DNA of 64,000 nucleotides from a virus (lineage: Duplodnaviria; Caudoviricetes): the IMG/VR virus record IMGVR_UViG_3300022752_000014, one strand, 5' to 3'. The translations under genes were made by a program, and so were the position numbers. Shown here one piece after another: positions 19,729-52,228 of the stretch. The notes beneath the pieces are model-generated. The model saw only the letters and a list, made by a program, of their open reading frames with translations, was not told the origin of the DNA and did no database searches. Every line of letters starts with the position of its first letter. The stretch's first letter is position 1.

Positions 19729-19774
19729 GGTAAACAAATGTTACGGATTTCTCATAATTCTTAACATTGTCGAA

Positions 19775-19880
19775 CACCCGTTAACCGAGACCTATGGGTG
19801 TATAAATCACGTCTCTCATATCCCCGCTGAGGGTGCGGGGAGCATAGTAACTCCACCATTCCCCTGATGGTCTTACTAAC
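19775..19880 (+). ncRNA. Structured psbA 5' leader, PhotoRC-II-like RNA motif
   Basis: Stems CACCC/GGGTG, GAGAC/GTCTC, CCCCGC/GCGGGG and ACCAT/ATGGT upstream of psbA. The family name is from recall of known cyanophage psbA leader motifs, not from a search. Confidence 0.55.
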
Positions 19881-23707: not shown

Positions 23708-24066
23708 TGGAAAGCAATTTTCACGAAGTTTATGGTGATGTTGAGAAAGCAATCGACTATGCTTTCAAAGGACAATTTGTTTTAAAGTTCTATGATTACT
23801 TAAAAATTCGTGGAACAAGACGCCATGAAGTTGAAGAGTTTATTGAAAGTGCCACAGCGAACGAAATTAGCAGTCTTGTAATGGACCTTGATGATTATCT
23901 TGAGGGTGGTGCAGATGAGATTCACAAACAACTTCGTGAGGGATATGGTTATCTACCAAAACCCGAAGCAAGAAAAATTAGAAACTATTTGTACAGCATC
24001 CTAGAAGATGCCTGGAAATACAGTCATGATAGACGACCAGGAAGACGCAAGAAGCAAACTAAATAA
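23707..24066 (+). CDS. Hypothetical cyanophage protein
   Basis: TAATG coupling; YLEGG...LREGYG pattern. Confidence 0.75.
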   Translation: MESNFHEVYGDVEKAIDYAFKGQFVLKFYDYLKIRGTRRHEVEEFIESATANEISSLVMDLDDYLEGGADEIHKQLREGYGYLPKPEARKIRNYLYSILEDAWKYSHDRRPGRRKKQTK

Positions 24067-24232
24067 GTCAGAACCCCAGATTAATCGGGGTGTTGAATTA
24101 TTACTACGCAATAGGAGAAGAAGATCAGAAAAACCAAAGACTTTTCAAGTGAAGTTTGGTAAGATGATCTCTCTGTTCCGCCGAGAGTTTCACTTCTTTA
24201 TAGAATTTCATTTTGATATTAGGAAAAAATAA
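24008..24232 (+). CDS. Hypothetical basic protein (start uncertain)
   Basis: Fills the gap between neighbouring genes. Confidence 0.45.
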   Translation: MPGNTVMIDDQEDARSKLNKSEPQINRGVELLLRNRRRRSEKPKTFQVKFGKMISLFRREFHFFIEFHFDIRKK

Positions 24233-24250
24233 ACTCTCTGGAGAAGGAAA

Positions 24251-24472
24251 ATGTTAGCAGTAACACTCACCATCGGCACTCTAGTTTCTATAATGTTCTT
24301 TTTTGTTGGTGGAGTAATAGGATGGATGGCAAAGGAACATTTTTATCAAACTTCGCCAGTCTATACACACCCAGAGATGTTTGACTCAAATGGGAATGTA
24401 ATACCAGACGAAATTTTAGCAGTACGATTTGAAAATGACTATGACGACTACGAAGACGAGGAAGAAGACTGA
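24251..24472 (+). CDS. Hypothetical membrane protein
   Basis: N-terminal TM helix, HPEMFD motif and acidic tail. Confidence 0.7.
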   Translation: MLAVTLTIGTLVSIMFFFVGGVIGWMAKEHFYQTSPVYTHPEMFDSNGNVIPDEILAVRFENDYDDYEDEEED

Positions 24473-25007
24473 AGAACCAATCCCATCTCTTCCCACAAAT
24501 CCATTTGTTTTTGAAGTTCTAGAACTTGTATCAAAACAAAGAAGTAACGAAAAGAAAGTAGAGGTTCTCAAAACCTACGAACATCCCTCTATTAAGTCTG
24601 TTTTGATTTGGAATTTTGACGAGACTGTGGTCTCTCTTCTTCCAGAGGGTCCAGTTCCTTATGGTGATGTAAAAGATCAAAACGTTTATTCTGGAAATCT
24701 TTCTGATAATCTTTCCAGAGAAGCCGCAGGTGGAGAAGCTGCAACTACTCAAGATCTTCAAGGTCTTGGAAAAACCTCTCTTCGCAGGGAGTATCAAAAT
24801 CTTTATCATTATGTAAAAGGTGGTAATAATTCTCTGACTACAATTCGCAGAGAAATGATGTTTATCAATCTTCTTGAAGGTCTGCATCCTAGAGAAGCAG
24901 AACTGTTATGTCTTGTAAAGGATAAGAAGTTGCAAACTAAATACAAAATCACTCATGAGAATGTGAAAGAGGCATTCCCCGATATTCAATGGGGTGGTCG
25001 TTCATGA
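24435..25007 (+). CDS. Conserved T4-like hypothetical protein
   Basis: LLPEGPVPY and RREMMFINLLEGLHPREAELL patterns. Confidence 0.75.
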   Translation: MTMTTTKTRKKTEEPIPSLPTNPFVFEVLELVSKQRSNEKKVEVLKTYEHPSIKSVLIWNFDETVVSLLPEGPVPYGDVKDQNVYSGNLSDNLSREAAGGEAATTQDLQGLGKTSLRREYQNLYHYVKGGNNSLTTIRREMMFINLLEGLHPREAELLCLVKDKKLQTKYKITHENVKEAFPDIQWGGRS

Positions 25008-25339
25008 CAGTTGCAGTTAGTACGGAGAAGCGTATGGCAGATAATGGAAGAGAAGACAGAAGTGTTCTGCCTAGCAACTATGGATGTGAGATTCTTCTAG
25101 AAAAAACAACGGTTGAAACCGCAAAGGATTCTTCTTTTCCAAATGATGCTTATTTAATTTGGTATAACCTTGATGGAAAAGATTATATTGATCTTGTGAG
25201 GGGAACCAGAGTACGTATTTTTGATATGTACTATGATAAGTATGGTCCAGGATCAGTTCAAAAAATTGATTTTGGATATGGAAGAACTAACCCAAAACTT
25301 TGGGGATACAAACAACCAGAGAAAAAGAAAAGAAAATGA
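25004..25339 (+). CDS. Hypothetical cyanophage protein
   Basis: ATGA overlaps at both ends. Confidence 0.7.
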   Translation: MTVAVSTEKRMADNGREDRSVLPSNYGCEILLEKTTVETAKDSSFPNDAYLIWYNLDGKDYIDLVRGTRVRIFDMYYDKYGPGSVQKIDFGYGRTNPKLWGYKQPEKKKRK

Positions 25340-25536
25340 GTGAAGGTTTTAGTGAAGAAAAAATTGAAGTTGCAATTTACAAAGACGAAGTAAAAAAACT
25401 TCTTAAAAAATATAAAAAAGTAAAAAAATATCAGAGGTCTTCAATTTTTGAAGTTAAGACGATGGATGGAACTGAAACGTATGTGAGTCAATTGATTAAA
25501 GAAGCAGAAGAGAATGGGGAAACATTATCTACTTAA
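25336..25536 (+). CDS. Hypothetical protein
   Basis: ATGA overlap with the upstream gene. Confidence 0.6.
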   Translation: MSEGFSEEKIEVAIYKDEVKKLLKKYKKVKKYQRSSIFEVKTMDGTETYVSQLIKEAEENGETLST

Positions 25537-25840
25537 TCTATATGGATGTTCGTTTGTCCTTTTGGATGACGAATGTTGTCTTATAGACTTGTTAGAAAAT
25601 GCAGCAGCAGCAAGTGGTGCTACAGTAGTCCAAACGATTTCAAAAAAGTTTGAACCACAAGGAGTTACTGTTATTTGTTTATTGTCTGAAAGTCATATTA
25701 GTATTCACACTTGGCCTGAAGAGGGTAAGGCAGCAGTAGATGTTTATACTTGTGGAGACTGTAATCCCAAGATTGGATGTGATATAATTATTCAACAACT
25801 CTATGCAACTAATCATACACTCAGTTATATAGAACGGTAA
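25514..25840 (+). CDS. speD: S-adenosylmethionine decarboxylase proenzyme
   Basis: MGKHYLLNLYGC, FEPQGVT, the ESHISIHTWPE autocleavage motif and DVYTCG. Confidence 0.95.
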   Translation: MGKHYLLNLYGCSFVLLDDECCLIDLLENAAAASGATVVQTISKKFEPQGVTVICLLSESHISIHTWPEEGKAAVDVYTCGDCNPKIGCDIIIQQLYATNHTLSYIER

Positions 25841-25873
25841 CAAAAGTTACAAAAAAAATCTTATAAATCTTAA

Positions 25874-25920
25874 TACGTTGATCACAAAAGTGACGGAAGT
25901 ACCAAATGGGAAGCAACGCA
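25874..25920 (+). ncRNA. Glutamine riboswitch (glnA-class aptamer)
   Basis: CGTTG-A-TCAC-AAAA-GTGA-CGGAAGTA-CCA-AA-TGG-GAAG-CAACG gives P1 CGTTG/CAACG, P2, the E-loop strand CGGAAGTA, P3 and GAAG, in the same order as the cyanobacterial glnA aptamer. Confidence 0.85.
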
Positions 25921-25950
25921 CCAATACCCACAAAGTAAAGGAGCAAACCA

Positions 25951-26037
25951 ATGGCACTCATTCTTATTCAACAAAAACTTCTAAAAGAAAAACGTCTTCG
26001 TGAAGCACAATTGTTTATGGCATCAAGACTTGCTTGA
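25951..26037 (+). CDS. 28-aa peptide downstream of the riboswitch (MALILIQQKLLKEKRLREAQLFMASRLA), not in the ORF track
   Basis: AAGGAG SD at 25938-25943; terminator directly after the stop. Confidence 0.7.
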   Translation: MALILIQQKLLKEKRLREAQLFMASRLA

Positions 26038-26043
26038 TATGTT

Positions 26044-26069
26044 GGGAGGTTGACACCTCCCTTTTTTTT
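26044..26069 (+). terminator. Intrinsic terminator with an embedded -35
   Basis: GGGAGGT-TGAC-ACCTCCC followed by 8 T. Confidence 0.85.
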
Positions 26070-26078
26070 AACTATAAT
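26050..26078 (+). promoter_or_regulatory. Consensus sigma70 promoter for the thyX operon
   Basis: TTGACA (26050-26055), 17 bp, TATAAT (26073-26078). Confidence 0.85.
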
Positions 26079-26099
26079 TACTTGGTCAGAGTTATAAAA

Positions 26100-26279
26100 A
26101 TGGATAAAGAAAAACTTAAACTGATTGTCCATAATCTAGAGTTGCTAGTTGACTCTTTGAAGTCCGAAGTTTATTCCGATGTGGACGCATATAAAGCATC
26201 TTATGAAGAAGTAGCACCTTACATTACTGATTACGACGAAGTATTTTATGATGGAGACGATGATGGATATCCCGACTGA
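26100..26279 (+). CDS. Hypothetical cyanophage protein
   Basis: MDKEKLKLIVHNLELLVDSLKSEVY; acidic tail. Confidence 0.7.
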   Translation: MDKEKLKLIVHNLELLVDSLKSEVYSDVDAYKASYEEVAPYITDYDEVFYDGDDDGYPD

Positions 26280-26289
26280 GTTTGAGTTT

Positions 26290-26979
26290 ATGAAGCCAGA
26301 AGTTAAACTCATTAGCGTTACACCCGATGCGGAAAAGCATATGGCATATTGTGCTCGGGTGAGTAATCCTGCTAATCAAGAAAACGAAAAGTTCTCTGGA
26401 CTACTCAAATATTGTATTCAACATCAACACTGGAGCATCTTCGAACAAGCGACGATGACAGTGGAGATCAATACGACTCGTGGTATCGCAGCTCAGATTT
26501 TGCGTCACCGTAGTTTCACATATCAAGAATTTTCACAACGGTATGCTGATGCAAGTCTTCTAGGTAAGTTTATTCCTCTTCCTGAGTTGCGTCGTCAGGA
26601 TACAAAGAATCGTCAGAATAGTATTGATGATATTCCTGATTATTTAAAATTGGTATTGGGTGAGGATATTCGTGTTCATTTTGAGCACTCCCTACGCATC
26701 TACAATCGCCTTCTGGAGGCAGGAGTGGCAAAAGAGTGTGCAAGGTTCGTACTGCCCTTAGCGACGCCTACACGCCTCTATATGACGGGTTCTGTGCGTT
26801 CTTGGATTCACTATATTGATCTTCGCTCTGCACACGGCACACAAAAGGAACATATGGAGATTGCAGAACTGATTCGCTGCATTTTTACCTGCCAGTTTCC
26901 TGCTGTGTCTGAAGCACTTGGTTGGAAACGTGATGGATGTTTTGAGTGTGTGGATGCACCGTCTATTACTATTGAATAA
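26290..26979 (+). CDS. thyX: Flavin-dependent thymidylate synthase
   Basis: HWSIFEQ, the RHRSFTYQEFSQRY ThyX motif, KECARFVLP and AHGTQKEH. Confidence 0.96.
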   Translation: MKPEVKLISVTPDAEKHMAYCARVSNPANQENEKFSGLLKYCIQHQHWSIFEQATMTVEINTTRGIAAQILRHRSFTYQEFSQRYADASLLGKFIPLPELRRQDTKNRQNSIDDIPDYLKLVLGEDIRVHFEHSLRIYNRLLEAGVAKECARFVLPLATPTRLYMTGSVRSWIHYIDLRSAHGTQKEHMEIAELIRCIFTCQFPAVSEALGWKRDGCFECVDAPSITIE

Positions 26980-27004
26980 ATATTCTTACAAATTTATGTA
27001 ACTT

Positions 27005-27253
27005 ATGGCGACGTATCCTGTTATTAATAAAGAAACTGGTGAACAGAAAGAAGTGACGATGAGTGTTCACGACTGGGACCAGTGGAAAAAAGACAATCCT
27101 GATTGGGATAGGGATTGGTCAGACCCATCAACTTGCCCATCATCAGGAGAAGTTGGTGAGATCTATGACAGACTTAAAAAGTCTCATCCTGGATGGAATG
27201 ATGTTCTTCACAAAGCATCAAAAGCTCCTGGATCCAAAGTAAAACCAATCTGA
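27005..27253 (+). CDS. Conserved T4-like hypothetical protein (FmdB-like position upstream of phoH)
   Basis: MATYPVINKETGE...GWNDVLHK; late ATAAATA at 26976-26982. Confidence 0.7.
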   Translation: MATYPVINKETGEQKEVTMSVHDWDQWKKDNPDWDRDWSDPSTCPSSGEVGEIYDRLKKSHPGWNDVLHKASKAPGSKVKPI

Positions 27254-27261
27254 TTACCTCT

Positions 27262-28017
27262 ATGCCTGCTAAGAAAAATACCCCGAAGTCACCAGTGCCA
27301 TTTGGTATGAGCAATAGACAAATGAAACGTAAAAAACCAATCAGTTCAGAATTGATGAGAGCAATTGAACCTCTCACTGACAATCAAAAAGAACTTTATC
27401 GTTGCTATAAGAACGATCAAAATATTGTTGCTTATGGATGTGCGGGTACAGGTAAAACATTTATCACTCTCTATAATGCTCTTAGAGATGTGTTGGATGA
27501 AAGGTCTCCTTACGAAAAAATTTACATTGTAAGGTCTCTTGTTGCTACTCGTGAAATTGGTTTTCTTCCTGGAGACCACGAAGATAAATCTTCGCTTTAT
27601 CAGATTCCTTATAAGAATATGGTGAAGTATATGTTTGAGTTGCCAACTGAAGCTGATTTTGAAATGCTTTATGGTAATCTCAAAACTCAAGGTACGATTA
27701 GTTTTTGGTCCACTTCTTTTATTCGTGGTACTACTCTTGATAATGCAATCATCATTGTCGATGAATTCCAAAACTTGAACTATCACGAACTTGATAGTAT
27801 AATTACTCGTGTAGGTGAGAATAGTAAGATTATGTTCTGTGGTGATGCCACTCAATCTGATCTTGTTAAATCTAATGAAAAAAATGGCATCGTTGACTTT
27901 ATGAAAATTCTTCGTATTATGCCTTCAATTGATATTATTGAATTTGGAGTTGATGACATTGTTCGCTCTGGATTTGTGAAAGAATACATCCTTGCGAAAA
28001 TGGAAATTGGTCTATGA
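27262..28017 (+). CDS. phoH: PhoH-family ATPase
   Basis: GCAGTGKT, IGFLPG, RGTTLDN, IVDEFQN, GDATQSD and DIVRSG. Confidence 0.96.
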   Translation: MPAKKNTPKSPVPFGMSNRQMKRKKPISSELMRAIEPLTDNQKELYRCYKNDQNIVAYGCAGTGKTFITLYNALRDVLDERSPYEKIYIVRSLVATREIGFLPGDHEDKSSLYQIPYKNMVKYMFELPTEADFEMLYGNLKTQGTISFWSTSFIRGTTLDNAIIIVDEFQNLNYHELDSIITRVGENSKIMFCGDATQSDLVKSNEKNGIVDFMKILRIMPSIDIIEFGVDDIVRSGFVKEYILAKMEIGL

Positions 28018-51762: not shown

Positions 51763-51837
51763 GGCGGTGTAGCCCAATCGGCAGCAGGCAAATGACTTAA
51801 AATCATTACAGTGTGAGTTCGAATCTCACCACCGCTA
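51763..51837 (+). tRNA. tRNA-Leu (UAA) with a short variable arm
   Basis: Acceptor GGCGGTG/CACCGCT+A, anticodon arm AATGA-CTTAAAA-TCATT, T arm GTGAG-TTCGAAT-CTCAC; no encoded CCA. Confidence 0.9.
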
Positions 51838-52156: not shown

Positions 52157-52228
52157 GCCCTTGTAGCTCAGTGGTAGAGCAACGGTTTTGTAAACCGTCG
52201 GTCGTCCGTTCAAATCGGATCGGGGGCT
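52157..52228 (+). tRNA. tRNA-Thr (UGU)
   Basis: Acceptor GCCCTTG/CGGGGGC, D arm GCTCAGTGGTAGAGC, anticodon arm ACGGT-TTTGTAA-ACCGT, T loop TTCAAAT. Confidence 0.93.

Follow-up and report, generated by a model that had tools for sequence, protein, structure and literature searches.

A type-1 glutamine riboswitch and a 28-codon micropeptide gene in a T4-like cyanophage

The locus and its virus

The DNA analysed here is a 64-kb stretch of viral sequence (the window). Between its speD and thyX genes it carries a compact cassette on the plus strand, made up of a predicted NtcA-type box, a -10-like hexamer, the aptamer of a type-1 glutamine riboswitch, a ribosome site, a 28-codon open reading frame (ORF) whose product starts with MALILI, and an intrinsic terminator. 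That the cassette is placed between these two genes had been proposed in an earlier reading of the letters, made before any database search (the sequence-only reading), and Pfam searches bore this out: the upstream gene matches AdoMet_dc (speD, E = 1e-34) and the downstream gene Thy1 (thyX, E = 4e-47). thyX follows after a 59-codon ORF (P0123, 26100-26279), the product of which has an acidic tail ending in DGDDDGYPD and matches phrog_878 (E = 6e-19). P0123 is also present 3' of the cassette in S-SRM01, S-H9-1 and S-BM3 and in the related loci L013, L004 and L021.

When the 10 kb around the site were compared by megablast, the best matches were exclusively T4-like myoviruses of Synechococcus and Prochlorococcus, with 71-80% identity. 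An Rfam scan of the whole window gave four matches above the curated cut-offs, namely a PhotoRC-II RNA (19762-19855, 82 bits), two tRNA genes (51763-51837 and 52157-52228) and the glutamine riboswitch family RF01739; a more permissive scan of 24000-28000 gave nothing credible beyond the matches at cut-off level. The myovirus matches, the PhotoRC-II RNA and the tRNAs together identify the window, as far as sequence comparison goes, as DNA of a T4-like cyanophage to which no cultured phage is closely related. Near-identical DNA is found in lake, river, estuary and sediment metagenomes from 11 studies (matches to the run index only), and in a lake DNA metagenome run, possibly that of the source sample, contigs span 25300-26600 with zero differences from the window. 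In the lake DNA run, one contig connects 25953 with 26100 and thereby omits 146 bases, the body of the ORF and the terminator. Its shorter side has only 27 letters, and it could come from a relative with other content or be an assembly artefact.

Searching viral contigs for a ribosome site followed by the MALILI start returned 39 further contigs, giving 40 loci with 22 distinct coding sequences. The position of the cassette in the window is shared by 21 of 39 loci, in the order phrog_485 gene (with or without speD), cassette, an ORF of the MDKEKLKLIV type, thyX (present or absent), phrog_385 gene and phoH; the remaining loci have the cassette in other contexts, for example near tRNA arrays. 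Three related loci have in common a conserved 37-nt hairpin with a U-run, located a few kilobases from the cassette on the minus strand (L168 4993-5029, L172 3484-3520, L195 4732-4768). It scores 29-36 bits against Rfam CRISPR-DR21, below the cut-off of 48, and we consider a terminator more probable here than a CRISPR repeat.

Aptamer, leader and promoter region

The sequence-only reading described a glutamine riboswitch of the glnA class, in a phage and directly before a short conserved ORF, and proposed an Infernal search with the glnA model of Rfam. The letters that it quoted for the motif are present exactly at 25876-25918, and cmscan matched RF01739 at 25874-25922 with 47.3 bits, where the gathering score is 35 (E = 3e-7 for the 64-kb window; the full model, positions 1-53, is covered). 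No second RF01739 aptamer was found within the window by the Rfam scan. P1 is formed by 25876-25880 with 25914-25918, P2 by four pairs (25882-25885 with 25890-25893) and P3 by two pairs (25902-25903 with 25908-25909), and the E-loop strands are CGGAAGUA at 25894-25901 and GAAG at 25910-25913. The three-stem junction and both conserved strands are thus all present between 25876 and 25918, and every highly conserved base of the RF01739 model is retained. Based on this match, the RNA belongs by sequence to the glutamine riboswitch family, type 1 (glnA RNA, RF01739).

Two details of the motif had to be corrected. P3, given before as CCA/TGG with a 2-nt loop, has only two pairs (CC/GG) and a 4-nt loop. 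The P1 that was taken for the family, CGUUG/CAACG, is not the consensus, which is CGUUC/GGAACG; the only change in P1 of the window is a compensatory one at the fifth pair (C-G to G-C), a version that occurs in 7 of 126 distinct phage aptamers. This fifth pair covaries among the 126, being C-G in 112, G-C in 7 and U-A in 5, and the stems are kept across 92 distinct P2 and 94 distinct P3 sequences. The base 3' of P1 is C in 124 of the 126 and is C25919 in the window. According to PMC6212724, which cites Ren et al. 2015, this conserved C makes a long-range pair with a G of the junction and is called the linchpin. A scan of IMG/VR with a pattern of the aptamer core found more than 120 contigs among the matches listed, and all ORFs 3' of such aptamers in phage contigs are short, from 16 to 65 codons.

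The small size of P2 and P3, which the sequence-only reading had recognized correctly, might be taken as a sign that the aptamer has decayed or has been re-purposed, so that it no longer binds glutamine or acts as an OFF switch. Thermodynamic folding is unsupportive of the aptamer, and a large number of the related phage copies fall short of the Rfam cut-off and deviate in their cores. The window copy, on the other hand, scores 12 bits above the cut-off with all highly conserved bases kept, its lone change in P1 is compensatory, and both types of glutamine riboswitch that have been tested raise expression in nitrogen excess (PMC6212724). Moreover, a four-pair P2 is found in 52 and a two-pair P3 in 37 of the 126 phage aptamers. 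As short stems are this common, they are rather family traits under selection than the result of decay, and we consider a decayed or inverted aptamer improbable. Neither the leader nor the whole unit has a minimum-energy fold that is better than those of shuffled sequences (z about 0). In the window these folds pair the 5' strand of P1 (GUUGA, 25877-25881) with UCAAC in codons 6-8 of the ORF (25968-25972), a pairing specific to the window and absent in relatives. As the folds equal shuffles and this pairing is not conserved, they were rejected as a guide.

The aptamer that we take to be intact is separated from the ribosome site by 15 nt and from the ATG by 28 nt. In the predicted expression platform (25918-25944, plus strand), GCACC at 25918-25922 and UAC at 25925-25927 can pair with GGAGC at 25940-25944 and GUA at 25935-25937, respectively, and this pairing would cover the ribosome site AAGGAG (25938-25943). 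With G25918 and C25919 free, the anti-ribosome-site hairpin has a calculated energy of -4.0 kcal/mol, and with both bases held by the aptamer the value is -0.9; the means over 19 leaders of the family are -4.3 and -1.8, respectively. Among 88 distinct phage leaders, 52 have a helix of 4-6 pairs that is anchored at the linchpin C and spans the region of the ribosome site and start, and its pairs covary between leaders (CACCU/GGGUG, CACUU/AAGUG, CAUCUC/GAGAUG and CGCCU/AGGUG). The leader class of the window differs from these, as GCACC/GGAGC contains one A.A mismatch and UAC/GUA is set off by two more A.A mismatches. Covariation is not seen in this class since both strands of the helix are nearly invariant. 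In the model for gifB, the linchpin C and the bases following it pair with the ribosome site, and binding of glutamine releases the site (PMC6212724). By analogy, pairing of the GCACC tail with GGAGC fits, although weakly, a translational ON switch of this kind. The counterpoint is that, in the class of the window, freeing the P1 end is predicted to strengthen the anti-ribosome-site helix by no more than about 3 kcal/mol.

Upstream of the aptamer, a box of the NtcA type (GTA-N8-TAC, in the palindromic form GTAAC....GTTAC) lies on the plus strand at 25837-25850 and overlaps the stop codon of speD. The -10-like hexamer TATAAA (25862-25867) follows 11 nt after the box, and relatives have a hexamer resembling TATAAA or TATAAT at the same place. 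We infer a transcription start at about 25874-25875, which coincides with the first base of the aptamer model. Taken by itself, the box is not above chance, as the window contains 13 copies of GTA-N8-TAC where 9.9 are expected. Among MALILI units, a box is present in 26 of 27 distinct upstream regions, with a background of 0.12 per 330 nt, and the distance from box to P1 is mostly 38-39 nt. Over all 168 distinct regions upstream of phage aptamers, the distances form clusters at 38-39, 44 and 59-61 nt. With a start near 25874, the centre of the box would be at about -30.5. In Synechocystis and Anabaena, the repressing NtcA site of gifA is centred at -30.5 and -28.5, respectively, whereas activating NtcA sites centre at -41.5 (PMC6316151). 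For the genes of the glutamine synthetase inactivating factors, repressing sites near -30.5 or -7.5 are characteristic. The predicted box therefore shares the repressing geometry of gifA, and in silico the unit has the layout of an NtcA-repressed promoter. Another GTA-N8-TAC is present inside speD at 25736-25749. It is identical in L096 and is probably maintained by the coding sequence.

The 28-codon ORF and its terminator

The MALILI ORF occupies 25951-26037 on the plus strand, including its TGA stop codon, and its translation is the one quoted in the sequence-only reading, which had described a ribosome site, a short ORF and a strong terminator 3' of the aptamer; all three are there. Across the MALILI loci the length of the ORF varies by whole codons (26, 27 or 28), third codon positions vary most, and the residues K9, K12, E13, Q20, M23 and A24 are invariant. 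Over codons 7-26, which excludes the six codons fixed by the search pattern, the reading frame of the ORF has a pN/pS of 0.35, compared with 0.98 and 1.73 for the two alternative frames. On this substitution pattern we regard the ORF as a real protein-coding gene. Prodigal uses a minimum of 90 nt, which is the usual 30-codon limit of gene callers, and a gene of 28 codons falls under this limit, so the micropeptide family is largely invisible in annotations. In RNA libraries, one freshwater contig, derived from a relative, covers 25910-25959, and none was found over 25960-26090; as the contig may represent carried-over DNA, it is uninformative on expression either way.

The intrinsic terminator is located at 26044-26069 on the plus strand, with a stem of seven pairs, five of them G-C (26044-26061), and a run of eight T residues (26062-26069). 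Its fold has a predicted energy of -12.3 kcal/mol (z = -3.1), and only 1 of 200 shuffled sequences was as stable. Nearly all MALILI relatives have a hairpin and a T-run 3' of the stop codon, and the stem sequences differ between them. A perfect promoter of the sigma-70 type for the next gene (TTGACA, 17 nt, TATAAT; 26050-26078, plus strand, 12 of 12 matches) is interlocked with the terminator, with TTGACA forming the loop of the hairpin and TATAAT following after the T-run, and the cassette ends here. The same layout is seen in L096, L163, L174, L168, L198, L013 and L004. Other relatives have instead the T4-late-like sequence TATAAATA directly after the T-run. With a promoter region of its own and a terminator conserved in position, the cassette is indeed the self-contained unit that had been proposed.

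These features also bear on which gene the riboswitch serves. The ORF is very short, and about half of the relatives have the cassette immediately before thyX, so that the ORF could be a mere leader or decoy while the riboswitch governs the 59-residue ORF, thyX or phoH by read-through, or the conserved stretch could act as RNA. For Melnitz, a phage of OM43, a possible link of the glutamine riboswitch with nearby genes, including thyX, was suggested (PMC9004378). Read-through is hard to reconcile with a strong, position-conserved terminator after the stop codon and with the perfect promoter that the next gene has of its own, and half of the loci have the cassette in other genomic contexts. A role as RNA or as a decoy does not agree with a protein-type substitution pattern in one frame only, nor with the presence of the peptide module as in-frame fusions in other phages. 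We therefore find it very improbable that the ORF is anything other than the gene under control of the riboswitch.

The helix module and its possible role

The peptide had been described as basic and amphipathic. It is basic, with three Arg and three Lys residues and a net charge of +4, but its helical hydrophobic moment of 0.12 is below the mean of shuffled sequences (0.22), so the second part of the description does not hold. No Pfam family (E up to 10) and no NCBIfam entry matches the peptide, and a profile search of the PDB and look-alikes in the ESM Atlas gave matches at chance level only. A profile of the family collects 160 clusters from a collection of 5.8 billion proteins, of 26-73 residues and all unnamed or 'hypothetical', and an exhaustive profile search of 1.84 billion representatives gave 17 matches, all of them micropeptides of 26-58 residues. 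With phrog_545, 14 of 17 aligned family members match (best E = 7e-8), at profile positions 1-26, which is the helix half; the window peptide alone gives E = 0.16.

The relatives form a series. Peptides of 43 residues, such as P0027, start with TYRGVKY and end with the same helix, and this form is located on contigs of T4-like phages; relatives of 31-37 residues lack the TYRGVKY motif (P0024, P0057 and P0063). A profile of the MALILI peptides only, aligned by hhalign with that of the other phage micropeptides, gave a probability of 97.3% and E = 2e-11 over 26 columns, and these columns are the helix module. Among cultured phages, profile searching showed that S-SRM01 has a 45-residue YRG ORF overlapping a 33-residue helix ORF, both of them annotated CDS, and that S-H9-1 and S-BM3 have a single annotated protein of 54 residues in which the helix comes first and YRG second. 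L013 and L004 combine the leader of the window with a YRG ORF, a helix ORF, the terminator and the same next gene (MDKEKLKLIV..), and L021 has the same leader and next gene with YRG and helix fused. The YRG motif is absent from the 28 residues of the window peptide, and a YRG ORF was not detected in the rest of the 64 kb either. As relatives pair or fuse YRG with the helix, the window has the smallest version, the helix module alone.

The sequence-only reading had linked the peptide to the DUF4278 type. This is supported only indirectly, in that the homologous helix module accompanies or is fused to a YRG module in related phages; the window peptide itself carries no DUF4278 signature, and the proposed HMM comparison with this family gave no match (Pfam, E up to 10). 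The YRG part of the 43-residue phage peptides aligns with Pfam DUF4278 (PF14105) at positions 2-19 with E of about 0.05, which is below the cut-off. A pattern for the MALILI start, a narrow one, gave 16 matches in 185,579 bacterial and archaeal genomes, all inside larger genes or other kinds of ORF and none in a cyanobacterium. A phage collection gave no match to the 260-nt unit by blastn or to the 28- and 43-residue peptides by tblastn. These queries were short and filtered, so the result says little, and the homologues in cultured phages came by profile instead.

A double leader resembling two glutamine aptamers occurs at the same spot in S-SRM01 (L218), S-BM3 (L219), S-H9-1 (L220), L167, L168, L172 and L195. 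Its second core is split, with a 5' half (CGTTCATC..ATG) and a 3' half (..GACGCAAA..GAC.GAAGGAACG) flanking an annotated ORF of 54-64 codons. These leaders score 25-35 bits with Rfam, below the cut-off, and the layout is absent from the window.

Glutamine riboswitches control the main brake on cyanobacterial nitrogen assimilation. Taking the parts together, we think it likely that the cassette is a complete phage-borne copy, in its smallest form, of the cyanobacterial expression unit for nitrogen-replete conditions. Host RNA polymerase would start at about 25874, as the geometry and conservation of the upstream region suggest, and as the NtcA box overlaps the promoter core, transcription would be repressed under nitrogen starvation of the host. 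The riboswitch in the 5' UTR, which belongs to type 1, is expected to sense glutamine. Without glutamine, a tail starting from the last base of P1 and the linchpin C would fold back on the ribosome site; glutamine would lock these bases into the aptamer and free the site, so that translation is turned on, as the analogy with gifB and the covariation in sister leaders suggest. The product would be the 28-residue basic peptide, for which there is a clear coding signal, and the terminator would end the transcript. The peptide may be regarded as the stand-alone helix module of a modular family of phage micropeptides, the other module being YRG (DUF4278-like). Expression would take place only with NtcA inactive and glutamine high, which is the logic of the inactivating factors (IFs) of glutamine synthetase (GS). 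The most likely role of the peptide, judged by this analogy, is to modulate nitrogen assimilation of the host when glutamine is plentiful, with GS as one candidate target among several.

The sequence-only reading had suggested that the peptide may act on GS. A closer parallel with the IFs, in which the peptide would mimic IF7 and IF17 and bind and shut off host GS when glutamine is high, appears doubtful to us. The control logic is that of gifA and gifB, with an NtcA box near -30.5 and a glutamine riboswitch (PMC6316151, PMC6212724), and the peptide is basic like the IFs. In the host, IF17 consists of a DUF4278 N-terminal part and an IF7-like C-terminal effector, and IF7 is the effector alone, in which three arginines are essential (PMC6316151). 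In the phages, the 43-residue form consists of a YRG/DUF4278-like part and the helix, and the window has the helix alone. If IF17 relates to IF7 as YRG plus helix relates to the helix alone, a role directed at GS is conceivable. Against the parallel, the profile search of 1.84 billion representatives revealed no similarity to IF7 or IF17, with no protein among the 17 matches longer than 58 residues and none of the 160 clusters named beyond 'hypothetical protein', within the little reach that a 26-column profile has, and Pfam and NCBIfam gave no match. Furthermore, the module order is reversed, helix first, in S-H9-1 and S-BM3, pairs of IF and GS are species specific, and picocyanobacteria are reported to be without GS control of the IF type (PMC6316151). 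A broader version, in which the helix peptide is the effector part of IF17-like micropeptides of phages and perhaps of hosts, inhibits or modulates GS, PII, PipX or NtcA in a glutamine-gated manner, and has the YRG/DUF4278 module merely for stabilization like the N-terminal part of IF17, seems to us equally unlikely. If it were true, the regulator would be present in the window in its smallest natural form.

For picocyanobacteria, PMC6316151 leaves open what such short peptides under riboswitch control do. In phages the control unit is retained in full, with predicted NtcA box, riboswitch, micropeptide and terminator, and in the window it is trimmed to one peptide of 28 residues, which indicates the portion of the peptide system that is important to the virus. 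The cassette is also a very small test object that can be synthesized, and it suggests that freshwater cyanophages read the nitrogen status of the host in early infection.

Relation to known systems

The closest characterized leader is that of gifB (IF17) of Synechocystis sp. PCC 6803, a type-1 translational ON switch (PMC6212724) of the same RF01739 family. In both, the aptamer directly precedes the ORF of a small protein, the linchpin C and the next bases can pair with the ribosome site, and NtcA is involved: gifB is under NtcA control and the unit of the window has a predicted NtcA box. Unlike gifB, the unit described here is encoded by a virus, its P2 and P3 are minimal and its leader is about 77 nt. 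Its predicted 28-residue product, in contrast to that of gifB, has no DUF4278 and, as far as the profile search reaches, no IF7-like part. The upstream region resembles the gifA promoter, with GTA-N8-TAC about 11 nt before the -10 hexamer and a centre near -30.5, given the start that we infer; unlike in gifA, the box is also seen in related phages at sites shifted upstream by 5 or about 21 nt. The type-2 riboswitch (Glutamine-II, Downstream-peptide, RF01704) of marine picocyanobacteria, found with IF17-like DUF4278 peptides (PMC2864571, PMC6212724), is likewise a glutamine-sensing leader before very short peptides. The window differs from it in having a type-1 fold with P3 and no pseudoknot, and a peptide without the YRG/DUF4278 motif.

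The same RNA family has been reported in T4-like cyanophages such as S-CREM1 (PMC9964418, PMC9602691) and in myophages of OM43 and SAR11 (PMC9004378), where the RNA is either listed or connected with tmRNA (PMC9964418, PMC9602691, PMC9004378). Neither the phage cassette with its micropeptide genes nor its NtcA box or helix module is described in the literature that we searched. The nearest counterpart in a cultured phage is the operon of S-SRM01 (L217/L218; CDS QPX47982-QPX47984), which is syntenic with the window, being located before an ORF of the MDKEKLKLIV type and thyX, and the last ORF of which, of 33 residues, encodes a homologue of the window peptide. S-SRM01 differs in that its aptamer is double, with a 55-codon ORF enclosed by it, and in having the 45-residue YRG peptide before the helix ORF; in the window, a single plain aptamer is followed by the helix ORF alone. 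Glutamine riboswitches of phages are thus already known (Rfam; PMC9964418, PMC9602691, PMC9004378, PMC2864571), and units of this kind are known from hosts and are common in such viruses. What is new here is the minimal form; the predicted NtcA box at conserved spacing and the tail that can pair with the ribosome site are additions to the sequence-only reading.
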